From NCBI GenBank assembly GCA_041660165.1, contig JBAZWW010000002.1:132074-196073 (forward strand): a stretch of 64,000 nucleotides of DNA, given 5' to 3'. Positions 3,863 through 56,352 of the stretch are shown here, piece after piece. Made by a program: the position numbers and the translations under genes. The first letter of the stretch is position 1. Each line of letters begins with the position of its first letter. The notes below the pieces were generated by a model. The model was not told the origin of the DNA, ran no database searches, and worked only from the letters and a program-made list of their open reading frames with translations. Source of the DNA: Patescibacteria group bacterium (GTDB taxonomy: Bacteria > Patescibacteriota > Patescibacteriia > UBA9934).

Positions 3863-6800
3863 ATGCACCTCATTCCGCTTCTGCGGACAGGTTTGCAAAA
3901 ATATTTTAAGTTTCAAGGAGCCCTCTTCTTGGTGTTTTTTATTACCTTTGGCGTTTTTCTTATTCCGCAGGCTCATGTTTTTGCCGACTGCGCTTCTGAT
4001 TGTAGCGCGAACACAGCTCTGAATCCCGGAGATCCAGCCATCGCGGCGTGTGTGGCCGCTTGTCCTGCTAATCCCTCAACCACCACTCCCGCTTCATCAG
4101 ATGCTGTTACCGGCCCAACATGGGCACTTGATGTAGTGCTGACTCCGCTCACCACCATTCTTGATTACATCGCCGCGGGCATCGTGAAATTGACGCTCGT
4201 GATCATGGAAATGATCCTCATTCCAATTTTGAACTACAACTCATTTTCTACCAGTCCGATCATTGGCCTTGGCTGGTCTCTAGTCAGAGACGTGATGAAC
4301 ATGTTTGTCATTATCTCCCTTCTCTTCATTGCCATTTTTACCATTGTTGGCAATCACCGCGCACATTGGGAACAGCAGTTACCTCAGCTTTTCCTGGCTG
4401 TCATTTTCATGAATTTTAGTAGGACTATCTGCGGTATTTTAATTGATATCAGCCAAGTGGTCATGTTTACGTTTGTGAACGCGCTTCTTGATATTGCGGC
4501 TGGAAACTTTGCCCAGCTTTTTGGCCTCCAGGAATTTGGCAAATACGCCAATCAAGATATTCTGACGTCCATTAACAATGGAACGGGTCTCAGTACGTCA
4601 TCGCAGTTTGTGGCTGCTTTTTTACGTATTCCATTATACGGAGCGATTTTTGCCATCCTTCTTTTACTCGCCCTTGCTTTCCTCTACCGCATTGTCATTC
4701 TCTGGGTCTTGGTTATTCTTTCCCCGGCCACGTTTCTCCTTGGCGGTCTCAAAGGCGTCTTTGGCCAGGCCGCGGGTGATCACGCTCAGTGGTGGGGAAA
4801 GTTTACGGGGGCGCTTCTCATGGGCCCGATTCTCACATTTTTCTTGTGGCTTTCGCTGGCTGCCGCTTCTTCTGGTTCTATTGCCCAATCTGAAAATTTC
4901 CCCACTCCGCAAAACGCGCAGTCTTACGGCTTATCGCTTGAGGTCTTTGATTCAAGCCATCTGACAAGTTTGATCCTGGCTTTGATTCTCCTCATTGCCG
5001 GCATGCAGATAGCTGGCGAGCAATCAAGCAAGGTGGGCGGTTTGGCCGGCCAAATGATTAACGAAGGGATGGGCCAGCGCGTGGTGAGCGGAGCGCTCCG
5101 GGCGCCGTTCCAGGCAGGCGCCTATGCCGGCAGGAAGGCTGACGTGTATGCCGGAAATAAACTTGAGATCGGAACACTCCGTGAAGGTCTTGGTAAGGGT
5201 ATCATTGGCGCCGGAGAAAGGCTGGCGCAAACCGGCGGAGTTGGTATGTATCTTGGCCGGGCAGTGGCTGCTGCCGGCGGAAATATTGAGCTTCAGGGCG
5301 AGCATCTGCGCGCTGAGCGCACGAAGGCCGCTACAGAGCGCGTGGGTAAGATGAGCGATTCTGAAAAAGCCATGCACATGGGCTTGCTGGCTACCGGCCA
5401 GAAGTCAAACATTCTTTCTACCAAAGAAGACTTTGACGCCGTGGCTCTTGATTTCATGAGCGATAAGGTGCAGGACGAAACCAAAGAGCACATTGCCCAC
5501 AATTTGGGTATCCATAAGAATACAGGCGAGAGCGATAAGGACTTTGAAGACCGTAAGGAGAGGGAGGTTGCTCCAGCCTTTAACAGGATGATGGCTCAGA
5601 CGCTGGAGTTTGCTAATAAACAGAAGAAGGCTGGTAAGCTTGATGATTCCGCAAAGAGCAAACTCACTTCGCTCAATACTAAGTACGCTGATCTTTTGAA
5701 GGATCCAGCGGAGACAGCCAAGTGGGTGGATGATGAAAAGTTCAACATGAATGACGCTCGTAAGCGTCCGGAGGTGGTTAATAACCCGGCCTTTAGAGAG
5801 GCGGCAAAAAGAAAGGTACTCAGAACCACAAAGGACAAAGATGGAGTTTCCAGGCCTGTTTACCTTTGGGATGAAATCAAGAAGGGCGTGTACGGTGACA
5901 AACTGAAGAAAGCTGCTGACAGTGTTGAGACTCCGCGGGCAACGACTGCCCAGAGGGTGGGCGAGGCTTTGAATGTGAGCAGAACGCCTCAGGAGGATCT
6001 TGAAAAGCATTTGAACTCTAAGACTGATGCGGTGAATATCGTTGGTGGTCTAAGAAATCCAGAAAGTGGTACCGGCCCGCAGGAAATGGTTCAGCCCATC
6101 CTTCAGCCAGCTGACCTTACGGGGAGCAGGGGTAAGGAAATCGGCGGAGCGATTATCAATTCAGAAGTGGATATTGCAAGCTCGCCCATTAAGACGGAGA
6201 TTGTCCAGAACATTGTTTCCACCCAGCCGGCAGAAACCATTGGCAAAGCGTTTAAGAATGAGCAGGTTAAACCGGCAGATATTCCGGCCAGCGCCTTTGC
6301 GTCTACAAACACGAACCGTCCAGCAGTGGTGGAGAGCGTCATCAAGGGCAATGTTGATGTGAAGTTCATGACTGCTCCTGCACAGGCTTCCTATAAGACG
6401 GCGCTTGAGGAGCTGAACACAAGCGGGGGCGTTAGTTCAAAGGATTATGTATCTGCCAAGTCTTCGCTTCTTGAGGCGGGCAGGCTCCAGCCGGGGAATA
6501 CGATTGATTCCGTTGTCTCTGGCATTACCAGAAATCCTACTACCGGCGCGGTTGCGCTTGATCCCTCAGCTTCAAGAGAGGTGAAACAAATTTTTGAGCA
6601 GAAGCCGGAGAATTATAAGTTTGTTGAACAGGAGATTCCTGCGTCTCCAACGGAGGTGAATGACTTTACGCAAGCTGTCGTTCAGACCGCTTCAGGCAAG
6701 AAAATCCAGGATCTTTCTGAGGCTTGGAAGAGCGCCAAGGGCCAACAGAAGACAGATCTCAAGAGCGCCATGGACGTGATTCATGAGTCTCTGGAGCGCG

Positions 6801-6906: not shown

Positions 6907-8496
6907 ATGTCCATGCAACAACTGCTCAATATCTCGACCGCTAGAAAATTCCTCATTGAAGATCCCATCCTTAAAACGTACCGCAGGATCTTTGAGGAGC
7001 GCGGATTACCCGTTGAACGTCGGTCTGAGCTTTTGGATTTGACGAACGCGATTATTGATGGGGCGTTACCTCCGGCGGATGCCTCGGCCATCATTGAGAG
7101 CGCCTTTGGGCTTGATGAGGAAAAAGCAAAACAATTAACGTGCGACGTGCTCGGCTATGGCGTGTTGCCGCTTGAAAAGTTTATTCCAGGCATTCCTGAG
7201 GCCATTACCGCGCTCGGGGGCGAGGTGGAAAAGTATCCGGCTGTTCGTGTAGAGAAGGACAGGGTTTCGGCCTTTGCGTGGTCAGAGCGCCTGCAGAAAG
7301 AGGCGAACATTCAGTTTTCTGACGTGCTCACTAAACGACTGGCGCTTCTTTTGGAAGGCCGAATGAAGGGCGAGAAGAATGCGGAATCCTTACGGACATA
7401 CTTCGGCCGGTCACTCACAATTGGGGGCCTGGCGCTTCTGAAGGAACAAATTGACGCCCTGGCTACGGCCATTGAAGGAGAGGCGCCATTTGTAGAGCTG
7501 GTGAGTGATGAGGAATGGAAGAAGATGCAGGAGCCCGCGCCTGTGGTGGAGGGGTTTGACGACGCCAAACCCGTACGCGCGGGCGAGATTGAGATCCCGC
7601 CCGGCCATGAATTGGCCGCGGAGGTGCCGGTATTGGAATGGAGGGGAAGGACGGACGCTCGATTAGCAGAAGCGGTTGAGGCCTGTGTTGAGTCAGCGAA
7701 ACCGATTTTGCTCGACAAAAATATTGCGCTTCCAAAGTTCCGCGACCTGGCTGAAAAGAATATCCGCGGGGTTCGTGATCCAGGCAAGACGCGGGATATT
7801 TTGGAGAAGGAGTATGCGCTCTCCGGAGCCGATCTTCGCGTGGTCCTAGACGCGTTGTCTGCGGGGAAGAAAAAGTATGATGGAGAGAAAAGGCCGGCAG
7901 AGGATGGAGAGGGGAAAGAGGAAGGAGAGGGAACTGTAGAGCTGAGAGAATCAGACGCCATGGATGCAAAATTCTTGGCACTGACCAAGACCACGCCAAC
8001 GGAAAGTATTGCGCCTATCATGCCTGGATCAAGGGTGTCGGCTGCTAGAGAGGCCGGAACCGCTACCGTGAAAATGCTACGGCCAAAGCCTGCCAAGGCT
8101 GAGCTGACCGTGGGCAGTGTCTCGCCTACCTCGCCGGAAAGAAAAGTGACGGATGTAGTGCAGGCTTCCAGGCTGATGGGGCCGGCTGAACAGCTGAAGA
8201 ACATGAGTCCGCTAGTCTTTCGCCGGATGTCCTCTGACCCCGCAGAGGCCGCACAAAAGATTGATGACCTGTTGTCTTCGCTGGCGGTTGGTGGGTATGA
8301 GGACAAGGTGCACGGCATCAAGGCTTGGCGCGAGAGTCCCATGAACCAGCTGTATCTGACCATCGCGGAAGAGGCGCTTGGCGCCGGTCTTTCAGTGCCC
8401 GAGGTGGCAAGTAGGCGCAGAAAAGAGGGGAAAGACAGCCTCAGTCCCGCGGAAATTAAGGCGCTCGTTTCATTAAATGCGAAACTGCGTTTCTAG
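6907..8496 (+). CDS. Hypothetical acidic soluble protein (529 aa) within the T4SS-like cluster
   Basis: Long ORF with coding-like composition and no recognisable motif. Confidence 0.6.
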   Translation: MSMQQLLNISTARKFLIEDPILKTYRRIFEERGLPVERRSELLDLTNAIIDGALPPADASAIIESAFGLDEEKAKQLTCDVLGYGVLPLEKFIPGIPEAITALGGEVEKYPAVRVEKDRVSAFAWSERLQKEANIQFSDVLTKRLALLLEGRMKGEKNAESLRTYFGRSLTIGGLALLKEQIDALATAIEGEAPFVELVSDEEWKKMQEPAPVVEGFDDAKPVRAGEIEIPPGHELAAEVPVLEWRGRTDARLAEAVEACVESAKPILLDKNIALPKFRDLAEKNIRGVRDPGKTRDILEKEYALSGADLRVVLDALSAGKKKYDGEKRPAEDGEGKEEGEGTVELRESDAMDAKFLALTKTTPTESIAPIMPGSRVSAAREAGTATVKMLRPKPAKAELTVGSVSPTSPERKVTDVVQASRLMGPAEQLKNMSPLVFRRMSSDPAEAAQKIDDLLSSLAVGGYEDKVHGIKAWRESPMNQLYLTIAEEALGAGLSVPEVASRRRKEGKDSLSPAEIKALVSLNAKLRF

Positions 8497-8513
8497 CGTG
8501 GTAAAATACTGTC

Positions 8514-8954
8514 ATGCCCCGCAATCAATTCGTTGTCCCGCAGTTTCTTGACGTGGAGCCACGCATCATTGGCCCGATTACTGCTCGGCAATTTTTAATC
8601 ATGCTGACCGTCGTATTGGTAGACTTTGCCCTGTATCGCATTTTCATCAAGAGCATTCCAGGAATCCTGGTGACTGCCTTGCCGGTAACGCTTATTGGCT
8701 CGGTCTTTGCCTTTGGAAGAATGAACGGCCAGCCGTTTCATGTGATTGCTCTTAACGTTTTGCAGACCGTGCGCCGTCCGGCTAAGCGCGTGTGGGACAA
8801 GACCATGTCAGATATGGACCTGCGCGTGCTTATGAAAAAGGAGGAAGCTCCGCCATCCATCGTTCGCCACACCAAGGCCCCGCTTGAGCAGTCACGGTTG
8901 TCTGAACTGACACTCGTTGTAAATACCGGCGGTGTCTACAGCGGTGAGGAGTAA
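8514..8954 (+). CDS. Small two-TM membrane protein, PrgI/VirB3-like
   Basis: 146 aa with two hydrophobic helices near the N-terminus (FLIMLTVVLVDFALYRIF, ILVTALPVTLIGSVFAF). It lies immediately upstream of the VirB4 homologue, as VirB3/PrgI does. Confidence 0.4.
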   Translation: MPRNQFVVPQFLDVEPRIIGPITARQFLIMLTVVLVDFALYRIFIKSIPGILVTALPVTLIGSVFAFGRMNGQPFHVIALNVLQTVRRPAKRVWDKTMSDMDLRVLMKKEEAPPSIVRHTKAPLEQSRLSELTLVVNTGGVYSGEE

Positions 8955-8956
8955 TT

Positions 8957-9652
8957 ATGGCCAACGCAAAAAACAATCTAGCAAAACCAAAAGCGGGACC
9001 GCCAACCCAGCGGTATTTGGATATTGCGGAGATTAGGGAAGACTGCGTGGTCTTAAAAGACGGCACGCTCCGTTCAGTATTGCTTGTATCGAGTATTAAC
9101 TTTGCCCTCAAAAGCGAAGATGAACAGCAGGCCACCATTCAGGGGTACATGCAGTTTTTGAATGGGCTTGATCACCCTATCCAAATCACTATTCAGTCCC
9201 GCCGGATGAACATTGACGCCTACATGGGGAAGCTGAAGGCGCAGGAAGAAACGATTCCGAATGAACTGTTGCGCGGACAGATTAGGGACTACATGTCCTT
9301 CGTCAAAGAGCTGGTTGAGCTGGGTGAGATCATGCAGAAGCGGTTTTTCGTCATCATTCCGTATGATCCGGCTGAGGGCGGGAAACAGCACGGTTTTTTT
9401 CAGAAACTGTCGGCGGCTATTTCACCGGCCGCAATTATCAAGCTGAATGCCAAACAGTTCGGTGAGCGCAAAGAATATCTCATGCAACGCGTAGGAAATA
9501 TTGCCGGCGGTCTGCAGAGCATGGGGCTTCAGGCGATTATGCTTGATACACAGGGGCTGATTGAGCTGTATTACAATTCCTACAACCCTGACGTTTCTGA
9601 GGTGCAAAAATTGGCTCCCATTGAAAAAATCCAGGTAGAAACCCGTTTCTAG
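8957..9652 (+). CDS. VirB4/TraE-family ATPase, N-terminal domain fragment (231 aa)
   Basis: YLDIAEIREDCVVLKDGTLRSVLLVSSINFALKSEDEQ resembles the conserved N-terminal region of Gram-positive VirB4 (PrgJ/TraE-type). It ends TAG one nucleotide before the ATG of the next ORF, which is in a different frame. Confidence 0.6.
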   Translation: MANAKNNLAKPKAGPPTQRYLDIAEIREDCVVLKDGTLRSVLLVSSINFALKSEDEQQATIQGYMQFLNGLDHPIQITIQSRRMNIDAYMGKLKAQEETIPNELLRGQIRDYMSFVKELVELGEIMQKRFFVIIPYDPAEGGKQHGFFQKLSAAISPAAIIKLNAKQFGERKEYLMQRVGNIAGGLQSMGLQAIMLDTQGLIELYYNSYNPDVSEVQKLAPIEKIQVETRF

Positions 9653-9653
9653 T

Positions 9654-11567
9654 ATGGCTTTTAACATTGATGAACTGAAAAAACAGCAGACCGTAGCTCC
9701 CATCAGGAGCGAGCGGAAACTTTCCTCTGCGGAAATGAGATCCCAGGAAGAGCGGGCCACGCTTGAAGAAGAGCGCTCGTTCAGGAGAGGCACCGTGTCC
9801 GTTCGTGATCTTATTGCGCCGGCGGCCTTTGAAGTCCAGCCCACGCATTTGGTACTTGGCGATAGATTTGTCCGCACGCTTTTTGTGACTACTTATCCGC
9901 GCTACGTTGGTATTGGCTGGGGCGCGCCGGTTATTAACTTCAAAGGAACAATTGATATCGGGATGTTTGTGTATCCCGTGAAGTCAGAGGTGATCTTGAA
10001 GCAGTTGCGTGATAAAGTGGGACAGATTGAAGCGCAGATTGTGTCTGATAATGAATCCGGACGGCCTCGCGACCCAATTCAAGAAACGGCGCTCCGCGAC
10101 GTTGAGCAACTGCGCGATGACCTTACACAGGGCATTGAGCACTTTTTCCAATTTGCGTTTTATGTGACGCTCTACGCGTCAAGCAAGGTAGACCTTGATA
10201 AGCGGACAGAGGAAGTTGAGGCGATCTTTGGCGGAAAACTTATCTACAGCAAACGCGGGCTGTACCAGGCCGAGCAGGGCTTTAACTCCACGCTTCCTTT
10301 GTGTAATGACGAGCTGATGGTTACGTTCAACATGAACACTAGCCCCATCGCTAGTTCATTCCCATTTATTTCTTCCGATGTTTCAAGCGATAACGGCATT
10401 TTGTACGGCATCAACCGCCATAACAACTCGCTCATTTTGTTCGACCGCTTCTCATTGCAAAATGCGAATGCCGTGGTCTTTGCTACGTCTGGCGCAGGAA
10501 AAAGCTATGCGGTGAAGCTGGAAATCCTGCGTTCCATGATGATGGGCACGGATGTCATTGTTATTGACCCGGAAATGGAATACCGCCAGCTGTCTGATGC
10601 CGTGGGCGGGACGTACGTGAACGTTTCGCTGGCGTCTGAGGCGAAGATCAATCCCTTTGATCTGCCCAGGCCAAAGGGCGAGGAATCTTCCGTTGAGGAC
10701 ATTTTGCGTAGCGCCGTCATTACGATTAAGGGTTTGCTCCGCATCATGATTGGTAAACCCATGGGGGAGAAGTCAGTCCTTGGCTTCACGCCGGAAGAGG
10801 ATAGTTTGCTTGATCGAGCCCTTCTTGAAACGTACGCCAAGAAAGACATCACGCCTGATTTGCCAAGTTTGGCGGAGATTACCGATTATCCTATTCTGAA
10901 TGATCTGTTGGAAATTCTTGAGGGCATGCAGGGCGGTGAGAATTTGGTTGCTCGTCTGACAAAGTTTACAACGGGAACATTTTCCGGATTACTCAACTCA
11001 CCAACTACGGTGGAGATGCGCAATCAGCTGGTCATTTTTTCTGTGCGGGATCTTGAGGACGAATTGCGCGCCATGGCCATCTACACCATCGTCAACTACA
11101 TCTGGAACGTGGTGCGTTCAGAGCGGAAGAAGCGTTTGCTGACCATTGATGAAGCGTGGTGGCTCATGCAGAATGAGGACAGCGCCAAGTTCATTTTCGC
11201 CCTTGTGAAGCGCGCCCGCAAGTATTATCTTGGCGTGACCACCATCACGCAGGACGTGAATGACTTTTTGTCGAGTTCGTACGGCCAGGCGATTGTGACC
11301 AACTCCCAACTGCAGATTCTCATGAAGCAGTCATCGGCCGGCGTGGACGTAATTGCCAAGACGTTTAACCTGACGCAAAGCGAAAAATATCTGTTGCTTG
11401 AAGCCGGCGTGGGCGAGGGCATCTTCTTTGCCGGCCAGAAGCACGCGGCCATCAAGATTGTTGCTTCATACACGGAAGATCAAATCATTACCACGAATCC
11501 TGAGCAGTTACTTCAAATTGAGCGCGCCAAGGAAGAATTCCAGAAGTCCTTACAGCCACCCAAGTAA
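9654..11567 (+). CDS. VirB4/TraE-family conjugal-transfer-type ATPase, C-terminal ATPase part (637 aa)
   Basis: Walker A ATSGAGKSY, Walker B-like DVIVIDPE and LLTIDEAWWL, and the YPRYVGIGW region typical of VirB4. Confidence 0.75.
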   Translation: MAFNIDELKKQQTVAPIRSERKLSSAEMRSQEERATLEEERSFRRGTVSVRDLIAPAAFEVQPTHLVLGDRFVRTLFVTTYPRYVGIGWGAPVINFKGTIDIGMFVYPVKSEVILKQLRDKVGQIEAQIVSDNESGRPRDPIQETALRDVEQLRDDLTQGIEHFFQFAFYVTLYASSKVDLDKRTEEVEAIFGGKLIYSKRGLYQAEQGFNSTLPLCNDELMVTFNMNTSPIASSFPFISSDVSSDNGILYGINRHNNSLILFDRFSLQNANAVVFATSGAGKSYAVKLEILRSMMMGTDVIVIDPEMEYRQLSDAVGGTYVNVSLASEAKINPFDLPRPKGEESSVEDILRSAVITIKGLLRIMIGKPMGEKSVLGFTPEEDSLLDRALLETYAKKDITPDLPSLAEITDYPILNDLLEILEGMQGGENLVARLTKFTTGTFSGLLNSPTTVEMRNQLVIFSVRDLEDELRAMAIYTIVNYIWNVVRSERKKRLLTIDEAWWLMQNEDSAKFIFALVKRARKYYLGVTTITQDVNDFLSSSYGQAIVTNSQLQILMKQSSAGVDVIAKTFNLTQSEKYLLLEAGVGEGIFFAGQKHAAIKIVASYTEDQIITTNPEQLLQIERAKEEFQKSLQPPK

Positions 11568-16731: not shown

Positions 16732-16743
16732 TAATCACAAAAA

Positions 16744-16770
16744 CACGACCCGTAAGGGTCGCATTTTTGT
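16744..16770 (+). terminator. Intrinsic terminator after the permease gene
   Basis: cgacccgtaagggtcg hairpin followed by CATTTTTGT. Confidence 0.55.
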
Positions 16771-16918
16771 GGCGGAGGGAGAGAGATCCTAACTACGTGG
16801 GTCGCCCCACATACATTTTGTCTAATGTTAGCCAAGCCGTTTTCAGTTTTATGGCCACGACTTGCCGAGACTTTGTTAATCATATATAATCTCCCATAGT
16901 CATAGTATAAGATTATCT

Positions 16919-17971
16919 ATGGATCCACGAAGCAATCGAATCGGCAATATCCCCGAATCTGTCTGGTCCCTCATTAACCAAATCGACCATCTGAAGGGCC
17001 AATGGATCGGCGGTGCCAAACTGAACCCGCAAGCACTTGGTCGCTTGAAGCGGTCGGTTTTGGTGACATCGACTGGCGCGTCAACCCGTATCGAAGGATC
17101 GAAGCTGTCCGATGAGGATGTTGAGAAGTTCATGCGCGGTTTATCGCTACAAAAATTTACCGATCGGGATAAGCAGGAAGTGCAGGGGTACTTCGAGCTG
17201 CTCGAAAATATCTTTACCTCGTGGAAGCACATTCCGTTTACGGAGGGCGTTATCAAACAACTACACCGGGAATTATTGAAGTATGCGGACAAGGACGAGC
17301 GACATCGTGGAGAGTACAAAAAAATGGAGAACTCCGTGGAGATGTTCGATGAGTCAGGAAAGTCTGTCGGCATCATTTTTGAAACGACCCCCGCCTATCT
17401 CACGCCGAAGCGAATGGAGGAGCTCGTTGAGCGGACAGCGGGCGCGCTAAAGCAAGGCGAAAGTCATCCACTAGTCGTCATCGGAAACTTTCTTGTCGAA
17501 TTTCTTGCGATTCATCCGTTCCAAGATGGGAACGGGCGCCTTTCGCGCATTCTCACGAATTTACTACTGCTGAAGGCGGGATACGAATATGTGCCCTACG
17601 TCTCGCACGAGAAACTTGTCGAGGACAACAAGGCGGATTACTACGTCGCTCTCCGCAAGAGCCAAACTTCGCTCGGAACCGGGCGTGAGAATATCACGCC
17701 TTGGTTGGAGTTTTTTTTGACCATCTCGCTTGAACAGGCGCGACAAGCGATTGAGTTATTGTCGCACGAAAATATTGAGAAGATTCTCTCGCCCAAACAG
17801 CTCGCGGTGTGGCGGCATTTTGAACTCGTCCCTGAGGCGACTGCGGGTGATATCGCTAAGGCTACCGATGTTGCACGTCCGACCGTCTCACAAGCAATCG
17901 ATGTCTTGCTACGGTTGAAAAAGATTGAGCGTATCGGCCAAGGACGAACGACACGGTATCGGAAAGTGTAA
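16919..17971 (+). CDS. Fic-family protein (class II, with an N-terminal intramolecular inhibitory motif and a C-terminal wHTH-like tail)
   Basis: Canonical HPFQDGNGRLSR motif. An (S/T)xxxE(G/N) motif, STRIEG, is present near the N-terminus. A TTGCCG-N17-TATAAT promoter lies upstream. Confidence 0.85.
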   Translation: MDPRSNRIGNIPESVWSLINQIDHLKGQWIGGAKLNPQALGRLKRSVLVTSTGASTRIEGSKLSDEDVEKFMRGLSLQKFTDRDKQEVQGYFELLENIFTSWKHIPFTEGVIKQLHRELLKYADKDERHRGEYKKMENSVEMFDESGKSVGIIFETTPAYLTPKRMEELVERTAGALKQGESHPLVVIGNFLVEFLAIHPFQDGNGRLSRILTNLLLLKAGYEYVPYVSHEKLVEDNKADYYVALRKSQTSLGTGRENITPWLEFFLTISLEQARQAIELLSHENIEKILSPKQLAVWRHFELVPEATAGDIAKATDVARPTVSQAIDVLLRLKKIERIGQGRTTRYRKV

Positions 17972-17980
17972 AGGCTGCGT

Positions 17981-18268
17981 ATGGGCAAACCCGTCAAAGC
18001 GCTTCATGCACTGAATTGGTACTACGGAAATATTTGTAGTCGCCAATGCCCGGAAGAGAAACAGCGTGAACATTATGAGCAGATGCGAGAGATCATTAAA
18101 GACCACGAGAATTTCATGATCACACACAAGATGTTCGTCAAAGTTATGCAGGAGAAGCACTGTGTATGCGAATCGTCAAACCTCCAACAGTCGCATCGAA
18201 GCTTCTGGAAACTCGATCATTCTGGCTGTCAGGATTTCTATCGTCATCTGTATGATCTCAGCCACTGA
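17981..18268 (+). CDS. Hypothetical small Cys/His-rich protein (95 aa)
   Basis: ORF lying between the Fic and helicase genes, overlapping the helicase start by 17 nt. The coding call is uncertain. Confidence 0.25.
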   Translation: MGKPVKALHALNWYYGNICSRQCPEEKQREHYEQMREIIKDHENFMITHKMFVKVMQEKHCVCESSNLQQSHRSFWKLDHSGCQDFYRHLYDLSH

Positions 18269-20408
18269 AGATCAGTTGAACTTGTACCTCTCCTTATTTC
18301 GTGGTCGAACGGACGTCTACGCCAGACGATGGGAGAAGGAAGGAAAGTCTGGTTACTCGCCGGCGTATGATTTTGATTGGAACGAATTCCTCGCACATAA
18401 GCGCCGTGGCGGAACAATGACAACCTTCGAAAAGAAGACGGCGATTCCGCTCACTCCAGATATCATCCGTAAGCACCTTGTCGGTCAACACGTCGTCGGT
18501 GTCTATCCGCTCCTTGAAAATAACTCTTCGTATTTTATCGCGGCAGATTTTGATGGCGACCGAGCATTTGATGAAGCAAAGAGTCTCATTTCGGTCTGTC
18601 AAGAAATCGGACTCCCTGCATATCTCGAACGCTCGCGTTCCGGGAACGGCGCGCACGTTTGGTTGTTCTTCGAAGAGCAATATCCTGCCGCGCGAAGTCG
18701 GGTGATCATGCTCGAGTGTGTCCGTCGCGCACTTGGCTTGTCTGCCTTCGATAAAGAAGTATCGTTTGATCGTCTATTTCCAAACCAAGATGCTCAGAGC
18801 GGTAAGGGATTCGGGAATTTGATCGCCCTGCCTTTGCAGGGAATATCCGTCGAACGTAGCAATGCCATTTTTATCGATCCTGACAATTTGGTCGCGTTTC
18901 CCGACCAATGGGATTTTCTTGCGAAGGTGAAAAGAATTTCGCCCCACGATCTTGATGCCGCATTCGCTCAGCTCACCGACCAATCAACCAATGAAGTAAC
19001 GACAGACTCAAAGAACCTCGTTTTGATACTTGGCTCAGGCATTCGTCTACAGAACAATTTGCTCGATAAGGCCACGGTCAACTTTATCCGGGAAGAGTTG
19101 AATTTTTCAAATTTGGATTACTGGCTAAAGAAGCGACTCGGCAAAAGTGTTTACCAGACGGAAAAGTTTTTCCGTTTGATTGAGGAAGTTGGCGAACATA
19201 TCCTCCTGCCGCGAGGTTTTTTGACGAAGCTGACCGGTCATCTCCGTACCCGAGGCATACCATTTCTGATTCGTGATGAACGCACTGCCTTGCCCGATGC
19301 CACGTTTACCTCGACGATTGAGCTACGACCGGAACAGACGGACGCCGTCAATCTCGCTATGGCGGTCGAGCAAGGCGTGATCGTTGCCCCTCCAGGCAGC
19401 GGAAAGACCATTATGGGACTCGAACTCATTGCACGTCGTGGACAACCCGCATTGATCCTCACGCACCGTAAGCAGATCATGGATCAGTGGGTCGATCGGA
19501 TTCAGTCTTTTCTTGGAATCGCCAAGGCGCACATTGGACGAATCGATGGGGTCAAGAAATCCGTTGGCGACAAGGTGACCGTCGCCATGATGCAGAGTCT
19601 CGCCCGACGGGAGGATCTGTCGGATCTGCGAGGCAAGTTCGGACTGGTCATCGTCGACGAGTGTCATCACATTCCCGCAAAAACGTTTCGCAAGGTTATA
19701 TCTTCCATCGACGCAAAATATTGCTACGGACTCACCGCAACGCCCGAACGGAAGCATAAAGACGAAAAGCTGATCTATCTGTTTATTGGAGACATCGTCA
19801 CCGAATTGCACGAAGAACACGCGAAAGAATCCGCTCCATCGAAATATCGCCCGGTCGAACCAACAAAGAACGTGATCGTCCGAGCCACGCAACTCGCCGT
19901 TCCGTTCTCTTTCACAGCCGACAACTATCAGATTCTTGCCCGCATTGTTTCTTTCGACCAAGCGCGGAACCGGTTGGTCCTTGAGGACATCAAACGTTCC
20001 GTGGCGGCGGGATGGAAGACGCTCGTTCTCAGCGAACGCAAGGAGCATCTTGAAGTACTTAGCATGTATCTCAAAGGAAGTTGCGAAGCTATCCTGGTGA
20101 CGGGTGACGATTCTGCCGTTTCGCGTAAAAGTAAATTCGCACAAATCGCGTCGGGACATTATCAGGTCATATTGGCGACGGGCCAGCTCGTCGGGGAAGG
20201 AATGGACGTTCCTGATATCCAGGCCGTCGTCTTGGCGTTTCCCCTCGCTTTCGAAGGCAAGCTCGCCCAGTACATTGGTCGTATTCGTGGGGCGCAAAAG
20301 ACAGTCTGCGATTACCATGATGGTAGGACGCCGTTCCTCGATCGTCAATTTAAAAAGCGGAAGAAGTTTTACGAGAAGAGTGGATTTCGGATAACCGAAG
20401 AGAGCTGA
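18252..20408 (+). CDS. Fusion protein: N-terminal archaeo-eukaryotic-primase-like (PrimPol) domain plus C-terminal superfamily-2 DEAD/DEAH helicase
   Basis: AEP motifs AADFDGD (DxD), SGNGAHVWLFF (sGxGxH) and GNLIALPLQG. Helicase motifs PPGSGKT (I), DECHH (II), TATPER (III), a helicase-C region with QYIGRIRGAQ, and an arginine finger. The start is placed at an internal Met (MISATEDQ...); the ORF track starts at 18162. Confidence 0.7.
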   Translation: MISATEDQLNLYLSLFRGRTDVYARRWEKEGKSGYSPAYDFDWNEFLAHKRRGGTMTTFEKKTAIPLTPDIIRKHLVGQHVVGVYPLLENNSSYFIAADFDGDRAFDEAKSLISVCQEIGLPAYLERSRSGNGAHVWLFFEEQYPAARSRVIMLECVRRALGLSAFDKEVSFDRLFPNQDAQSGKGFGNLIALPLQGISVERSNAIFIDPDNLVAFPDQWDFLAKVKRISPHDLDAAFAQLTDQSTNEVTTDSKNLVLILGSGIRLQNNLLDKATVNFIREELNFSNLDYWLKKRLGKSVYQTEKFFRLIEEVGEHILLPRGFLTKLTGHLRTRGIPFLIRDERTALPDATFTSTIELRPEQTDAVNLAMAVEQGVIVAPPGSGKTIMGLELIARRGQPALILTHRKQIMDQWVDRIQSFLGIAKAHIGRIDGVKKSVGDKVTVAMMQSLARREDLSDLRGKFGLVIVDECHHIPAKTFRKVISSIDAKYCYGLTATPERKHKDEKLIYLFIGDIVTELHEEHAKESAPSKYRPVEPTKNVIVRATQLAVPFSFTADNYQILARIVSFDQARNRLVLEDIKRSVAAGWKTLVLSERKEHLEVLSMYLKGSCEAILVTGDDSAVSRKSKFAQIASGHYQVILATGQLVGEGMDVPDIQAVVLAFPLAFEGKLAQYIGRIRGAQKTVCDYHDGRTPFLDRQFKKRKKFYEKSGFRITEES

Positions 20409-20420
20409 TCGGTAGATAGC

Positions 20421-20446
20421 AAAATGACTCCGAAAGGAGTCATTTT
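20421..20446. terminator. Perfect hairpin AAAATGACTCC-GAAA-GGAGTCATTTT (bidirectional terminator) after the helicase gene
   Basis: Read from the sequence. Confidence 0.6.
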
Positions 20447-20517
20447 GGCATGGGGACAATGCCTTATGGGTCGCCCCGTCGCCATCGGCACACGGGTTGC
20501 ACGATAAGAAATTGTCC

Positions 20518-20606
20518 TGGCGGAGGGGGCGAGATTCGAACTCGCGGAGGCTATTAACCTCGACGGTTTTCAAGACCGTTACCTTAAACCGCTCGGTCAC
20601 CCCTCC
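20518..20606 (-). tRNA. tRNA-Ser (anticodon UGA), with long variable arm and encoded CCA
   Basis: Minus-strand fold: acceptor GGAGGGG/CCCCTCC, anticodon loop cuUGAaa, long variable arm, T-loop TTCGAAT, 3'-GCCA. Confidence 0.8.
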
Positions 20607-20674
20607 CGTTTATCAGCTACGGCTGCGTGGGGCATTCTACGCGGTTTTGTTCAGTTTGTCTATGTGCACATGCT

Positions 20675-20703
20675 ATACAAAAATACGACCTTTACGGGTC
20701 GTA
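20675..20703 (-). terminator. Minus-strand intrinsic terminator downstream of tRNA-Ser(GCU)
   Basis: ACGACC-tttac-GGGTCGT stem followed by a U-tract on the minus strand. Confidence 0.45.
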
Positions 20704-20709
20704 TCTTTG

Positions 20710-20799
20710 TGGCGGAGAGGAGAGGATTCGAACCTCCGGTACCCTTTCAGGTACGCAGGTTTAGCAAACCTGTGCCTTAAGCCACTCGGCCACCTCTCC
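20710..20799 (-). tRNA. tRNA-Ser (anticodon GCU), with long variable arm and encoded CCA
   Basis: Minus-strand fold: acceptor GGAGAGG, anticodon loop ttGCTaa, long variable arm, T-loop TTCGAAT. Confidence 0.8.
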
Positions 20800-21057: not shown

Positions 21058-21597
21058 GTGGGAAAGCATATGGCAAAGGAGGCGAAAAAACGAGCGGTTC
21101 CGTTAGAGGAACATGAACATATTGATGTTGGAAACGTCATCAGTATGTGGGAAACGTGGGAATTCCCGCCTACTACCCGAACTACCAGCTGGTATGCCGT
21201 GGCTGGCACCCTGGGGCTCATCATGCTTTTGTATGCGCTTTTTACGGCCAACTTTGTCTTTGCCGTTATCATTCTCATGTTTGCCGTCATTCTTCTTCTT
21301 AGGGACTTGAAAAAGCCGGGCCGGGTAAATGCCTACGTAACTACGTCCGGCATTGTGCTCGGCGACGAATTCTATCCGTATAACGGCCTCAAGGATTTTT
21401 CCATCTCTTATGAACCGCCGGATGTAAAGTACTTGTACGTCACGTTTCAAAGTCGAACCCAGCCCATGCTTTCAATTCACTTGGACGACAAGAATCCTAA
21501 CGAAGTCCGCCAGGCCCTGCTTCCTTACGTTTTTGAGAATCTTGAGCGCGAAGGTGAAAGTTTGACAGATACCCTCCGTCGCGTGTATAAATTGTAA
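21058..21597 (+). CDS. Hypothetical membrane protein with two TM helices
   Basis: 179 aa ORF with two hydrophobic helices; the start could alternatively be 21070. Confidence 0.55.
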   Translation: MGKHMAKEAKKRAVPLEEHEHIDVGNVISMWETWEFPPTTRTTSWYAVAGTLGLIMLLYALFTANFVFAVIILMFAVILLLRDLKKPGRVNAYVTTSGIVLGDEFYPYNGLKDFSISYEPPDVKYLYVTFQSRTQPMLSIHLDDKNPNEVRQALLPYVFENLEREGESLTDTLRRVYKL

Positions 21598-21630
21598 GGT
21601 TTTTAGGACATTTTATAGCTTTCCAAGTAT

Positions 21631-21707
21631 GCGCGCGTAGCTCAGCTGGATAGAGCATCAGCTTGCGGAGCTGAGGGTCGTAGGTTCAAATCCTGCCGCG
21701 CGCACCA
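21631..21707 (+). tRNA. tRNA-Arg (anticodon GCG by my hand fold, tentative), with encoded CCA
   Basis: Cloverleaf: acceptor GCGCGCG, D-arm GCTCAGCTGGATAGAGC, anticodon stem TCAGC/GCTGA with loop TTGCGGA, T-arm GTAGGTTCAAATCCTGC, 3' ACCA. Confidence 0.75.
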
Positions 21708-21713
21708 CAAACC

Positions 21714-21742
21714 GATCCCTTCACTGGGGTCGTTTTGTTTTT
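21714..21742 (+). terminator. Intrinsic terminator after tRNA-Arg
   Basis: CGATCCC-ttcact-GGGGTCG followed by TTTTGTTTTT. Confidence 0.6.
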
Positions 21743-21804
21743 CCTAATAGCAAAAGGAGCCGCGGGGCTCCTTGAGGACGGTTACGGCGAACGGTGCGCT
21801 TTGG

Positions 21805-22143
21805 CTAGCGCGGGGCGGAGGGCTGGAAGAAGGTTTCCGGCACCTCCGTCAGGATGCACCTGGCCTCGTCTTCGCCGGTCTCACGGCCCTGGTAACTGCC
21901 TACCCACATCCCGGCGTGGTGCCGGAAGCGGTACTTGATCTGGTCCGTCCGGTGGGCGTAGCGCTTGGTGAAGCACAGCTCCTCCGCGGTCAGCACCACG
22001 TCGGTGATGATCGCAGTGCCGAAGTTGTCCCGCATCTCGCCATCGCCCGCGTCTCCGTCCGTCTTGATGACGCCGAAGAAGGTGAATGGACTCGGCCCCC
22101 CAATGTTCTGGAAAAAGACTCCATTGATCAGAAACAGCTTCTT
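21805..22143 (-). CDS. Hypothetical protein (~112 aa) in a locally high-GC segment
   Basis: GGAGG lies 5 nt upstream of a GTG start (MKKLFLINGVFFQ...). The local GC of about 60% is well above the flanking regions. The opposite-strand ORF in the track looks like antisense noise. Confidence 0.35.
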   Translation of the reverse strand, partial: KKLFLINGVFFQNIGGPSPFTFFGVIKTDGDAGDGEMRDNFGTAIITDVVLTAEELCFTKRYAHRTDQIKYRFRHHAGMWVGSYQGRETGEDEARCILTEVPETFFQPSAPR

Positions 22144-22264
22144 CACGGATACCTCCGGTCCTGTTGGCTGCTCGGCTGAGCCGGAATACACTACAGTATT
22201 TTCTATTTGTTGTACAGTACCTCTTCATGATCAATCGTAGTACCATAAGGTTGAACCTAGCTAT

Positions 22265-23107
22265 ATGAAAAATAATCCCAACTCGTTAGCTATTTTTGAG
22301 GATTTCAATATTCGTCGAATTTATGACGAGAAAAAGGAGATCTGGTACTTTTCGGTGATCGATATCGTTGCCGCTTTAACTGAGCAAACGAATTATAATC
22401 GAGCTAAAAGTTACTGGACTACGCTGAAAAATCGACTAAAGTTAGAAGGAAGTGAAGTGGTCACAAAATGTGACCAGTTGAAAATGCTGGCTCAAGACGG
22501 AAAAATGCGAGAGACGGACGTGGCTGACGTGGAGTCGTTATTACGCATTATTCAGTCCGTTCCCTCGAAAAAAGCCGAACCAATCAAACTCTGGTTGGCG
22601 AAGGTCGGATATGAGCGAATGCAAGAAATGACTGATCCAGAGAGGGCCCTGGATCGCAGTCGGGGGTATTGGCAAAAACAAGGTAGAAGTGAGAAGTGGA
22701 TTCAGCAACGGATGACGGGACAAGAGACGAGAAATAAATTAACAGATTATTGGAGCGATCATGGCGTAGAACAGGGCGAGGAGTTCGCTATACTCACAAA
22801 CATAATTCACGAGGAGTGGACGGACTTGTCAGTGAAGAATCATAAAAGTTTGAAAGGATTAAGAACGCAAAACCTTCGCGATCACATGAGTGAAGAAGAG
22901 CTGATTTTTACGGCTCTCGCAGAGCTCTCAACTAGAAGAATAGCGGAAACTGACGAAGCTGAGGGATTAGAAGAAAATAAGATTCCGGCCAAGAAAGGCG
23001 GAAAGATTGCCAGGGATGCACGACTGGCTCTTGAAATAAGAACGGGAAAATCAGTAATAACCGGAGAAAACTTTCTACCAAAAAAGAAGTCTCCAAAATT
23101 GTTATGA
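22265..23107 (+). CDS. DinD/BRO-N-like DNA-damage-inducible-protein-D-family protein
   Basis: Architecture and several conserved stretches resemble E. coli DinD, which has a Bro-N-like N-terminal region and a basic C-terminus. Confidence 0.5.
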   Translation: MKNNPNSLAIFEDFNIRRIYDEKKEIWYFSVIDIVAALTEQTNYNRAKSYWTTLKNRLKLEGSEVVTKCDQLKMLAQDGKMRETDVADVESLLRIIQSVPSKKAEPIKLWLAKVGYERMQEMTDPERALDRSRGYWQKQGRSEKWIQQRMTGQETRNKLTDYWSDHGVEQGEEFAILTNIIHEEWTDLSVKNHKSLKGLRTQNLRDHMSEEELIFTALAELSTRRIAETDEAEGLEENKIPAKKGGKIARDARLALEIRTGKSVITGENFLPKKKSPKLL

Positions 23108-56140: not shown

Positions 56141-56304
56141 CGCCCGATGAAATAAAAGAAAAACGAGCAGAGTTTCTCCGATTAACGCGTCAAGCCCAAG
56201 AAATAAGGGACCGTCTTATTGCGCGTGCTGAAGTGTTGATGAAGGAGCTGGATATTTCTTTTGATGAGGCGCTGAACTATATTCGGAATGTGGACACAAA
56301 GTAG
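56137..56304 (+). CDS. Small ORF (55 aa, MTPDEIKEKRAEFLRLTRQAQEIRDRLIARAEVLMKELDISFDEALNYIRNVDTK) overlapping the MTase stop in ATGA fashion
   Basis: Translationally coupled small ORF found by my own translation; it is below the ORF-track cutoff. Confidence 0.3.
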   Translation: MTPDEIKEKRAEFLRLTRQAQEIRDRLIARAEVLMKELDISFDEALNYIRNVDTK

Positions 56305-56352
56305 CGAATGGTGCTTTGTGTGGTTACGCTAGCTACTTAGTTGGAACGTGGT

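Follow-up and report, generated by a model that had tools for sequence, protein, structure and literature searches.

What is the 3.7 kb of DNA that separates znuB from the tRNA-Ser(UGA) gene in this genome, and how could it have arrived there without an integrase? The host is an Uhrbacteria-like member of the Patescibacteria with a tiny genome, and the window (the whole stretch of DNA analysed) is 64,000 nucleotides long. A preliminary description had proposed that a small island had inserted itself at the 3′ end of a tRNA gene and left a partial tRNA copy at its far boundary.

The cassette is inserted at tRNA-Ser(UGA)

The boundaries of the region are defined by the following features:
16746-16761, + strand: terminator hairpin T1, CGACCCGTAAGGGTCG followed by a T-run, which ends znuB (terminator scan)
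16770-16794, no strand: left junction (attL-like) with TGGCGGAGGGAGAGAGATCCTAACT, which copies 25 nt of the tRNA-Ser 3′ end (alignment and shuffle test)
20518-20606, − strand: intact tRNA-Ser(UGA), the integration target (ARAGORN tRNA-Ser(tga); Rfam tRNA, 57 bits)
20634-20662, − strand: own promoter of tRNA-Ser(UGA), TAGACA-17-TAGAAT; context, outside the element (promoter scan)

The best local alignment pairs the left junction with the 3′ end of tRNA-Ser(UGA) (20518-20542), ungapped and with 21 of 25 positions identical. The copy spans the tRNA from the CCA end to the T-loop, and begins with a TGGCGG core at 16770-16775 (20518-20523 in the tRNA). The binomial probability of such a repeat, given the 187-nt intergenic region, is about 4e-7, and none of 20,000 shuffles reached 21 matches (their maximum was 18). 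The partial match reported in the preliminary description is therefore real, a direct repeat well above chance; the sequence it quoted, TGGCGGAGGGAGAGAGATCC, is present but located at 16770-16789, not 16776-16795.

In relatives (for example, locus L003) znuB, the terminator and tRNA-Ser(UGA) follow each other directly with nothing in between, and in both L003 and L016 the terminator abuts the tRNA 3′ end. The window has the same terminator, then the tRNA-end copy, the cassette and tRNA-Ser(UGA), so that the copy adjoins the znuB terminator at the position of the intact tRNA in relatives. Hairpins of the T1 type occur only here and at 20685-20701. T1 is the sequence that natively lies downstream of the displaced tRNA 3′ end, and thus belongs to the chromosomal flank rather than to the element. 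The 3.7 kb between the tRNA copy and tRNA-Ser(UGA) is a discrete inserted cassette, as had been proposed, and we place the element at 16776-20517, between the TGGCGG cores at 16770 and 20518.

The empty-site comparison succeeded with relatives, which lack these genes at the site, but gave no same-species empty site: all three samples with an identical ZnuB also carry the island, and these three contigs showed no polymorphism and no sign of a circular form. The GC content of the cassette is not atypical, and its base composition is that of its flanks. There was no integrase between the repeats, and no LSR (large serine recombinase) or other recombinase among the window ORFs tested.

A separate observation, absent from the preliminary description, is that terminator and fragment together (16737-16794) also align with the terminator and 3′ end of a second tRNA gene, tRNA-Ser(GCU), at 20676-20733. 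The alignment score of the left region is 62 to tRNA-Ser(GCU) and 30 to tRNA-Ser(UGA).

The cargo is a conserved operon

Three genes occupy the cassette, each as named in the preliminary description:
16919-17971, + strand: class II Fic protein with a C-terminal winged helix, 350 aa (PF02661, 1e-14; PADLOC SoFic, 2e-43)
17981-18268, + strand: conserved small Cys/His-rich protein, 95 aa, helical (22 homologues, 59-82% identity)
18252-20408, + strand: AEP primase-polymerase and XPB/Rad25-like SF2 helicase in one fusion protein, 718 aa when started at the ATG at 18252 (PF22548, AEP-TOTE, 4e-78; ResIII, 1e-27; Helicase_C)

The Fic protein has the features of class II Fic AMP-transferases: the canonical HxFx(D/E)GNGRxxR motif (HPFQDGNGRLSR, aa 199-210), the N-terminal (S/T)xxxE(G/N) inhibitory motif (STRIEG, aa 55-60) and a C-terminal wHTH, a region with a weak MarR_2/DIP2311-like_C match. 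It matches PDB 8uqu (6e-39), and the PADLOC SoFic model covers residues 45-347. However, it scores only 44 bits on the NCBIfam SoFic equivalog, which has a cut-off of 550, and is therefore not a SoFic orthologue. SoFic is described as a single-gene system, whereas the cassette Fic is always operonic with the AEP-helicase.

The end of the 95-aa ORF overlaps the helicase start by 17 nt. In this protein C19 and C23 are invariant, and C63 and several His residues are near-invariant (at least 90%). Its structure was predicted with a pLDDT of 75; it had no PDB match and no recognised fold or family. The gene lies between Fic and helicase in L030, L037, L043 and L047, and is missing in L025, L027, L032, L039 and L048.

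The AEP-helicase (homologues are about 717 aa; one, P0001, is identical at 718 aa) contains the AEP motifs DFD (aa 99-101), GNGAH (aa 131-135) and FDRLFP (aa 172-177), and the helicase motifs GSGKT, DECHH and QYIGRIRG. Its Pfam family is named ‘TOTE conflict system AEP domain’, where TOTE stands for TPR, OB, TBP, Effector (Aravind, Iyer et al. 2022, as given in PMC12458937). Domain searches found no TPR-OB or TATA-binding-protein component in any of the three cassette proteins, and we rejected a full TOTE system, the AEP-helicase being the sole shared component. The AEP domain also resembles CRISPR-associated primase-polymerases (PADLOC Cas-associated PrimPol, 1e-66; NCBIfam PrimPol_Msp, 2e-26; PDB 7nqd/7nqf, 8e-9) but, unlike these, has no cas genes or CRISPR array nearby and is fused to an XPB-like helicase. 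Across loci, the upstream partner of the helicase varies between Fic, RhuM, a YfjJ-like protein and unknown proteins.

The ends of the cassette are conserved

Outside the genes, the cassette contains these elements:
16797-16810, + strand: conserved left-end motif, a small hairpin GTGGGTCGCCCCAC that holds an 11-mer at 16798-16808 (hairpin scan)
16818-16835, no strand: 18-bp near-palindrome TTGTCTAATGTTAGCCAA, conserved in the left end (alignment A4, consensus CATTTTGTCTAATATTAGCAAAG)
16862-16890, + strand: cassette promoter, TTGCCG-17-TATAAT (10/12 match)
16888-16914, no strand: conserved dyad AATCTC..ATAG....TAT.AGATT, located after the −10 box and before the Fic start codon (alignment A4)
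20424-20443, no strand: bidirectional terminator hairpin ATGACTCCGAAAGGAGTCAT (read from the sequence)
20452-20517, no strand: conserved right end (RE), an imperfect palindrome GGGGACAAT...ATTGTCC, with a near-invariant CGATAAGAAATTGTCC and the 11-mer at 20467-20477 (locus comparison)

The 11-mer, TGGGTCGCCCC, has just two copies in 64 kb, at 16798-16808 and 20467-20477; the preliminary description had the right copy correctly but put the left one at 16797. We rejected it as a second att repeat: it is a motif conserved at both ends of the element. At the left-end position, TGGGTCGC(C/A)CC is kept in L025, L027, L037, L039 and L055. The near-palindrome is a candidate protein-binding site. In alignment A4, CTTGC...TATATAAT of the promoter is invariant, and invariant columns cluster at the dyad, which may be the operator bound by the wHTH domain of Fic. 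At the other end, the hairpin terminates the helicase gene and, on the opposite strand, the tRNA-Ser transcript, and other loci have an equivalent hairpin ahead of the right end. The RE abuts the tRNA CCA end and forms the attR-side arm of the element. Conservation of the right end was 62-86%, compared to 66-88% for coding DNA.

The cassette recurs without a recombinase

The same cassette, with left and right ends conserved, was found in more than 12 other metagenomic loci. The 11 distinct right ends have the form ...GGTCGCC...CGATAAGAA(A/G)TTGTCC followed by TGGCGG, and copies always abut the CCA end of a tRNA (Ser(GGA), Ser(UGA) or Asp) or a tRNA fragment. At the left end, some 25 nt of tRNA-like sequence precede the 11-mer, which is followed by the conserved promoter. 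Fic lies directly upstream of the AEP-helicase at nearly all loci with upstream DNA (L025-L029, L032, L037, L039, L048, L052, L055-57, L066, L079-81), which bears out the earlier view of the cargo as a mobile module. One such locus is in a Lentisphaerae MAG (81% identity), and the module occurs in unrelated genomic contexts, where protein identity reaches 92% for Fic and 87% for the helicase. L055-57 retain only the last 88 aa of the helicase. In a distant clade, the cassette comprises a 160-aa gene and the helicase; a repeat of about 55 nt, taken from an SDR gene's 5′ end, flanks it, and it too lacks a recombinase. Full-length helicase homologues were found on large plasmids and islands with their own replicons; there were none in 50,697 phage records.

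Left tRNA-like fragments occupy the equivalent place in L055, L027/L067, L037 and L048. They follow the local tRNA type, matching tRNA-Asp at 24 of 25 positions in L055 and tRNA-Ser at 21 of 25 in the window, and the Asp lineage (L027, L055) is separate from the Ser lineage, so that tRNA type tracks element phylogeny. The left pieces of L027, L055 and L039 have in common a T-loop variant not seen in their local tRNAs. The left piece may derive either from the target or from the element. The four mismatches in the window may mean that this copy is old and no longer mobile.

No copy, in the window or in the other loci, contains a recombinase, and extra cargo, where present, is not one either. 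The preliminary description had taken the lack of an integrase to suggest a decayed or satellite-like element. The lack stands, but the integrase-less state is a recurrent form with conserved ends.

The right end is shared with LSR elements

The RE motif also terminates islands and phage-like elements that encode a particular LSR (domains Resolvase, Recombinase and Zn_ribbon_recom). Cassette and LSR island stand in tandem in two genomes. In L067 the order is cassette, RE with TGGCGG, LSR-bearing island, and the same RE with TGGCGG; in L079/L077 it is cassette, RE, a 19-kb LSR island, a second RE and tRNA-Ser(GCU), the two REs being identical across the 30 nt compared. L072 and L074 have the LSR, an RE-like sequence and tRNA-Ser(UGA), and an LSR fragment adjoins the cassette in L025. 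A scan for the RE-TGGCGG pattern matched two IMG/VR viral contigs, and an independent scan for the LSR protein found the same two (90% and 75% identity); lysis genes also lie on these viral contigs. The left ends differ, being LE1 in the cassette and LE2 in the LSR islands, and the junction lies at 24-25 nt of the tRNA in the former and at 18-19 nt in the latter. Thus, one enzyme may not serve both.

Cis-mobilisable elements (CIMEs) and similar elements lack an integrase, are bounded by att sites and depend for their movement on an ICE, IME or phage resident in the same cell. The window cassette is alike in having att-like ends with no recombination module of its own, and in lying at a tRNA gene, elsewhere in tandem with a recombinase-bearing element that shares an att arm. 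It differs in its distinct left end and conserved cargo operon, and in its putative partner, an LSR found in Patescibacteria and Lentisphaerae. phiC31, Bxb1 and TP901-1 are types of LSR-integrating phages and islands. Here too, LSR genes lie near the right end of elements that close with the same RE-tRNA junction. In contrast, the window element has no LSR, and its junction keeps some 25 nt of tRNA-like sequence, a piece not required by LSR chemistry as such.

Alternative explanations

The recurrence of an integrase-less form with conserved ends, together with an RE shared with LSR elements, favours a non-autonomous element mobilised by another over a randomly decayed one. We therefore lean towards a non-autonomous integrative cassette that carries a probable conflict/defence module and is mobilised by the LSR family, acting in trans or in cis.

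An unlikely alternative, though the best of those considered, is that the cassette is the remnant of an island or prophage that once integrated autonomously at tRNA genes by means of an LSR or a tyrosine integrase. Deletion would have removed the recombinase together with most other genes, leaving a fixed, immobile piece whose conserved ends happened to survive. The mismatches in the left copy, the presence of the island in every same-species contig, deletion derivatives such as L055-57 and the LSR fragment in L025 would all fit. However, the compact layout of left end, Fic, helicase and right end recurs with precise ends at different tRNAs and in different phyla, and independent deletions would not repeat identical boundaries; moreover, the non-coding ends are as conserved as the genes.

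Could it be a minimal phage satellite, excised by the LSR of a helper phage and replicated by its own primase-helicase, with Fic serving addiction or interference instead of host defence? Among the replication modules of satellites and other mobile elements, primase-helicases are typical (PMC5862659), LSR homologues with the same right end lie on viral contigs with lysis genes, and the structured right end could act as an origin. We regard this as rather improbable: the cassette has no packaging, capsid-redirecting or regulatory genes, its helicase is an XPB-like SF2 translocase and not the SF3, SF4 or MCM usual in replicative fusions, and full-length homologues reside on large elements with their own replicons and are absent from the phage records.

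The lack of a recombinase in every copy, the intact tRNAs at all sites with left pieces of the local type, and the distant SDR-gene clade could also suggest that the AEP-helicase, with or without Fic, inserts itself by novel priming or template switching, with a duplication of some 25 bp at the end of the target tRNA. This seems very improbable, since a right end shared with LSR elements, and tandem arrangement with them, offer an ordinary explanation; tRNA choice follows element phylogeny, as site-specific recombination predicts; and we know of no strand-transfer chemistry for AEP or Fic enzymes. Finally, that nothing was inserted, the genes being ancestrally adjacent to the tRNA cluster and the repeats due to chance or generic tRNA-like sequence, would suit the flank-like base composition but is refuted by the repeat statistics, the relatives without the genes and the unrelated contexts of the module.

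Proposed function and movement

What would the cargo do? The operon of Fic-wHTH, the small protein (in some relatives only) and the AEP-XPB-like helicase may act as a conflict/defence module, in which a primase-helicase acting on nucleic acid would work alongside an AMP-transferase toxin or regulator that is autoinhibited. The module could repress itself through the winged helix bound to the promoter palindromes. Consistent with a defence role are the canonical Fic and inhibitory motifs, the Pfam family named for conflict systems, the PADLOC SoFic match and the changing upstream partner of the helicase. Against it, the PADLOC and NCBIfam matches are to single proteins only, and the NCBIfam scores lie far under their cut-offs. 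That the module serves replication is less probable. In Thermus thermophilus, ICETh2 carries a PrimPol and a helicase on an element at tRNA-Val, and the pair is dispensable for ICE replication and lowers transformation, its PrimPol limiting DNA uptake (PMC7693054). ICETh2 is likewise a small tRNA-integrated element with primase-polymerase and helicase, flanked by a tRNA 3′-end repeat, but it has its own tyrosine integrase and excisionase, a 47-nt exact repeat, and PrimPol and helicase as separate genes of other families, with no Fic.

As the cassette shares end sequences with LSR-encoding elements, it probably moves by borrowing their enzyme. An LSR of this family, supplied in trans or by a tandem element, would catalyse insertion and excision, with the 25-nt left piece as an att half-site or a displaced tRNA end left by the reaction. 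The right end would give the tRNA a new structured trailer and terminator, and the target tRNA would thereby stay functional.

An insertion at the 3' end of tRNA-Ser(UGA)

The following features lie at and around the 3.7-kb island (tRNA genes from ARAGORN, the znuB stop codon by direct reading):

16731, znuB stop codon
16746-16761, terminator hairpin T1, after the znuB stop
16770-16794, tRNA-Ser 3'-end fragment TGGCGGAGGGAGAGAGATCCTAACT, downstream of T1
20518-20606, minus strand, tRNA-Ser(UGA)
20710-20799, minus strand, tRNA-Ser(GCU)
21631-21707, plus strand, tRNA-Arg(GCG)

The fragment downstream of T1 is identical, without gaps, at 21 of 25 positions to the 3' end of tRNA-Ser(UGA) (20518-20542). 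The binomial expectation for such a match in the 187-nt intergenic region is ~4e-7, and 0 of 20,000 shuffles reached 21 identities (the best had 18). The direct repeat claimed in the preliminary description is therefore real and beyond chance, although the fragment had been placed 6 nt too high, its true start being 16770. An 11-mer also described there, TGGGTCGCCCC, is present at 16798-16808, 1 nt higher than reported, and at 20467-20477, and these are its sole copies in 64 kb. The right boundary of the cassette (20517|20518) adjoins the CCA end of tRNA-Ser(UGA). T1 plus the fragment (16737-16794) also aligns to the terminator and 3' end of tRNA-Ser(GCU) (20676-20733, score 62), and this type of hairpin occurs in only two places within the window, after znuB and after tRNA-Ser(GCU).

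Comparison with relatives points to the ancestral arrangement. ZnuB is 56-62% identical to proteins from Uhrbacteria and Patescibacteria metagenome-assembled genomes (MAGs). In one of these loci (L003, ZnuB 57% identical), znuB and its terminator are followed directly by the 3' end of tRNA-Ser(UGA), the insert is absent, and Ser(GCU) and Arg(GCG) come next in the same order as in the window. In another (L016), a single unrelated ORF lies in between and a T1-like terminator again adjoins tRNA-Ser(UGA). From these two arrangements it follows that the junction T1|TGGCGG sits where the tRNA ended in the ancestor, and that the 3.7 kb were inserted. The repeat and the L003 arrangement together bear out integration at a tRNA 3' end with a partial tRNA copy at the far boundary, as had been proposed. 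Among the relatives compared, L003 lacks the insert, and within the species no empty site was found: all three contigs with identical ZnuB, from different samples, carry the island. Other relatives have the block of tRNA genes in inverted or broken form, so the locus is prone to rearrangement.

Base composition was not atypical (GC 0.46-0.55 within the island vs 0.49-0.57 outside). The island contains only genes for Fic, a small ORF and a primase-polymerase (AEP)-helicase, and no integrase or recombinase, in agreement with the preliminary description. Nor was an integrase found elsewhere in the window, among ten further ORFs and in the precomputed Pfam table for 5931-26731.

T1 (16737-16775) and T2, the terminator after tRNA-Ser(GCU) (20676-20715), are paralogous, with 35/41 positions identical including flanks. 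The match is better still between the plus strand of T1 and the minus strand of T2, because the hairpin is palindromic. L016 has two adjacent Ser tRNAs with one similar terminator. These features suggest that a duplication or gene conversion took place, or that tRNA-Ser(GCU) is another site at which elements could attach. In an Uhrbacteria relative (L001, 11660-18053), tRNA-Ser(GCU) and tRNA-Ser(UGA) lie 6.4 kb apart, separated by a stretch in which a GIY-YIG-like ORF and the gene for a 1661-aa surface-type repeat protein are found. This is another indication that the two tRNA-Ser genes are a hotspot for insertion in this lineage.

Genes of the cassette

16919-17971, Fic gene (PF02661), with weak wHTH family matches at the C-terminus
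17981-18268, small ORF
from 18252 (best start, ATG), AEP-helicase gene

The Fic protein matched the PADLOC SoFic model (2e-43) and PDB 8uqu (6e-39). It has the active-site motif HxFx(D/E)GNGRxxR (HPFQDGNGRLSR, aa 199-210) and, N-terminal to the Fic core, a putative inhibitory motif of the form (S/T)xxxE(G/N) (STRIEG, aa 55-60), recognised from its sequence pattern. The earlier assignment to class II thus stands.

The small ORF is a genuine gene: 22 homologues, 84-105 aa long, are 59-82% identical to it. Of its cysteines, Cys19 and Cys23 never vary, and Cys63 is kept in at least 90% of the sequences, as are several His residues. An AF2 model of the protein was helical, with four helices and a pLDDT of 75, and found no PDB match at E < 1.

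Homologues of the AEP-helicase are ~717 aa long, and an identical 718-aa protein is on record. The PF22548 AEP domain (E = 3.7e-78, 228/230 profile positions) is followed by ResIII and Helicase_C. The AEP half is nearest to CRISPR-associated PrimPol structures and the helicase half to archaeal XPBII/Rad25. The catalytic motifs of both halves are intact.

Conserved ends of the element

A right end (RE) of ~64 nt lies downstream of the helicase terminator in eleven distinct loci; in searching for it, an anchored scan replaced a permissive regex scan that gave noise only. The consensus reads GGACAA..AT(C/G)GGTCGCC..short hairpin..CGATAAGAA(A/G)TTGTCC and is followed at once by TGGCGG, which belongs to the CCA end of tRNA-Ser(GGA), tRNA-Ser(UGA) or tRNA-Asp(GUC), or to a tRNA fragment. 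RE is as conserved as the Fic coding DNA. It is an imperfect palindrome in which two 16-nt arms are inverted copies, and it folds better on the minus strand, which is that of the tRNA (-13.5 vs -7.9 kcal/mol). Covariation was weak (1-3 compensatory pairs), so we make no claim for an RNA gene; in the element ends, Rfam matched only the tRNAs.

The left end lies upstream of Fic and comprises, in this order, ~24-25 nt resembling a tRNA 3' end, 3-4 nt, and TGGGTCGC(C/A)CC, followed by a palindrome, a conserved promoter and a dyad ahead of the start codon. Since it is present in the conserved left and right ends, the 11-mer is a motif of both element ends. Some cassettes carry extra cargo (DUF3024, a SEC-C protein, a RecQ-like helicase), but a recombinase is never present in this cargo or in the related cassettes.

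Where does the left tRNA-like piece come from? It could be either the displaced end of the original tRNA (a target-site duplication) or a half-site borne by the element. Left fragments track the local tRNA type, as expected of a displaced end, and agree with the local tRNA at 24/25 positions in L055 (Asp), 21/25 in the window, 19/24 in L048 and 16/24 in L037. A half-site carried by the element would account for a T-loop variant that three loci (L027, L055 and L039) have in common and that is absent from their own tRNAs, and for the choice of tRNA following element phylogeny, with Asp-associated elements clustering.

A 1.6-kb deletion derivative of the cassette was found at tRNA-Asp(GUC) in three loci (L055, L056 and L057). 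It retains a complete Fic gene, only the last 88 residues of the helicase, and the two element ends together with the 24/25 copy of tRNA-Asp.

The right end is shared with a large serine recombinase family

The same right end occurs in elements that encode a large serine recombinase (LSR). In a Lentisphaerae contig (L067), the cassette RE is followed by TGGCGG and 12 nt of tRNA-like sequence, and then by a second element, one that encodes two methyltransferases and an LSR. This element finishes with the same RE and TGGCGG, after which a third element begins. In a Patescibacteria MAG (L079/L077), Fic, small ORF, helicase and RE are followed by a 19-kb island encoding a UvrD-like helicase, methyltransferases, restriction enzymes and an LSR. 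The terminal RE of the island is identical to that of the cassette over the 30 nt compared, and adjoins tRNA-Ser(GCU).

Two independent scans of IMG/VR gave the same association. Searching for CGATAAGAANTTGTCCTGGCGG returned two contigs, and searching with the L067 LSR protein returned six, including both of those with the RE motif (90% and 75% identity); in both, RE follows the LSR gene at a distance of 2.8 kb. A further two contigs show the order LSR, RE-like sequence, tRNA-Ser(UGA). The RE of the window is 69-75% identical to the LSR-linked REs. In Patescibacteria, LSRs of this family are very common and vary little in sequence. No LSR was detected among the ORFs tested in the window.

Both composite loci (L067 2955-14440; L079 8420-19751 with L077) are tandem arrays at one tRNA site, whose elements each end in the RE motif, TGGCGG and a short tRNA fragment. 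Elements of the second type start AG(G)TACC.., carry AAATGAGACAAATGAGACA repeats, and bring methyltransferases, restriction enzymes and the serine recombinase. The window lacks the left-end repeats of these second elements.

Distribution of the module

More than 8,000 proteins match the AEP-helicase at E < 1e-20, and its closest homologues, a Lentisphaerae MAG among them, are 81-87% identical. A Fic-wHTH gene (65-92% identical) lies directly upstream of the helicase in nearly all loci having upstream DNA, with the small ORF between them in a subset (L030, L037, L043, L047 and L079-81). More distant clades have other partners in the upstream position: RhuM in L065, an unknown 160-aa protein in L062, an unknown 183-aa protein in Massilia and, on plasmids of E. 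coli, a YfjJ-like protein. Full-length homologues were found on 98 plasmid records and in none of the 50,697 phage records searched.

The homologues on an E. coli O157:H7 plasmid (L060, 6154-9232) and a Massilia plasmid (L061) are full length at 33-36% identity and are preceded by a small YfjJ-like or unknown gene; those of E. coli lie in AlpA/YfjI-type island contexts. E. coli K-12 YfjK/AbpB, of the AbpAB (YfjL/YfjK) defence system, was considered as a homologue and rejected (BLASTP E = 0.22). The true E. coli homologue is a different protein of 786 aa, preceded by the YfjJ-like gene.

In the L062 clade (AEP-helicase 55% identical), the gene for the 160-aa protein and the helicase form a 3-kb unit flanked by a direct repeat of ~55 nt (5160-5229 and 8200-8262). 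It corresponds to the 5' end (Rossmann motif region) of a gene for a short-chain dehydrogenase, a target that differs from a tRNA. Again, there is no recombinase inside the unit.

Other loci in the window

Beside tRNA-Arg(GCG), around 21735-23107, a GC-rich stretch (0.58-0.59; approximately 21500-22250) has no convincing gene, and is followed by a GC-poor stretch (0.43-0.46) encoding a 280-aa protein with a weak Bro-N match. This region may be another small foreign insert at a tRNA. Directly upstream of the Fur-znu operon (6907-11567) is a type IV secretion-like gene cluster, comprising a 529-aa protein, PrgI, a TraC-like protein and a VirB4/DUF87-TraG P-loop ATPase; another copy of the cassette, in L080, has a comparable DUF87 ATPase nearby. 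A second defence-like locus (53006-61585) encodes a 1044-aa Type ISP restriction-modification enzyme (N6_Mtase and Type_ISP_C), which adjoins a 1240-aa SNF2-family helicase on the opposite strand.

Discussion

How does the cassette compare with known elements? Like a tRNA-integrated island, it has a tRNA 3'-end boundary and a direct repeat at the other boundary, but it differs in having no internal integrase or recombinase and no atypical base composition. The homology of its RE to the att arm of an LSR-encoding element, with both in one contig (L067, L079/L077), resembles the arrangement of CIME-like elements. Unlike phage satellites (PICI, P4, PLE-like), it has three genes only, with neither its own integrase nor genes for redirecting helper packaging. 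It recalls an integron gene cassette by the imperfect palindrome at its 3' end, but the RE arms read GGACAAT...ATTGTCC and do not match the attC RYYYAAC/GTTRRRY cores, no IntI was seen, and the site is a tRNA gene. TOTE conflict systems are composed of TPR, OB, TBP and Effector (PMC12458937). The AEP of the cassette belongs to PF22548, but Pfam and NCBIfam searches found neither a TPR-OB (cold-shock) nor a TATA-binding-protein component in the three proteins. We therefore rejected a full TOTE system; with only the AEP-helicase present, the cassette is not TOTE in the defined sense.

Most simply explained, the 3.7-kb insert is a non-autonomous integrative cassette that has att arms belonging to the system of the LSR family and was inserted at tRNA-Ser(UGA). 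Such a cassette would move only with a recombinase from another element, either a tandem neighbour, as in L067 and L079, or one at another place in the genome. Two differences between cassette and LSR islands make it less likely that a single enzyme acts on both: the junction comprises 24-25 nt of tRNA at the cassette vs 18-19 nt at the LSR islands, and their left ends differ. With four mismatches in its left piece and its presence in all same-species contigs, the copy in the window may be old and immobile.

A bolder reading, which we think improbable, makes the cassette the smallest "hitch-hiker" element. At 3.7 kb and with no integrase or packaging genes, it would spread through CPR bacteria and beyond via the att arm of an abundant LSR phage/island family, copy itself after excision with its own primase-polymerase-helicase, and direct Fic against the helper or rival invaders. 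If this were true, Fic and the AEP-helicase would be a new and widespread two-gene conflict system, with >8,000 helicase homologues and interchangeable upstream partners.

What might the operon do? We consider a role in conflict or defence more likely than one in replication. The Fic protein is SoFic-like and predicted to be autoinhibited, the AEP family is named for conflict systems, and the helicase is of the XPB translocase type, not of the replicative type. The interchangeable upstream partner, and homologues on large plasmids that have their own replicons, argue in the same direction. There is also a precedent in Thermus, where the PrimPol-helicase pair of a tRNA-integrated element is dispensable for replication of the element and restricts incoming DNA (PMC7693054).

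Taken singly, tRNA-site islands, LSR integration, partner-mobilised elements without an integrase, Fic toxins and PrimPol-helicase fusions are all known. In the literature on TOTE, AEP-TOTE and Fic with primase-helicase, we found no description of the cassette. What is new with respect to the literature searched is the combination, in Patescibacteria, of a precisely bounded, recombinase-less Fic/AEP-helicase cassette with an att arm common to an LSR family.

Few mobile elements or defence systems are recognised in Patescibacteria, whose genomes are tiny. From sequence, we have defined a compact family of cassettes with precise ends, which target the 3' ends of tRNA genes and have no recombinase of their own; a recombinase family by which they are probably moved, with the att arm common to both; and a conserved operon of Fic and a primase-polymerase/XPB-like helicase. 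This helicase has thousands of homologues, and in other phyla, E. coli plasmids included, it is paired with different upstream genes. A defence function would make the operon an uncharacterised system in which a primase is joined with an AMP-transferase. Mobilisation in trans would make the cassette a simple natural model of how serine recombinases choose their targets at tRNA genes.
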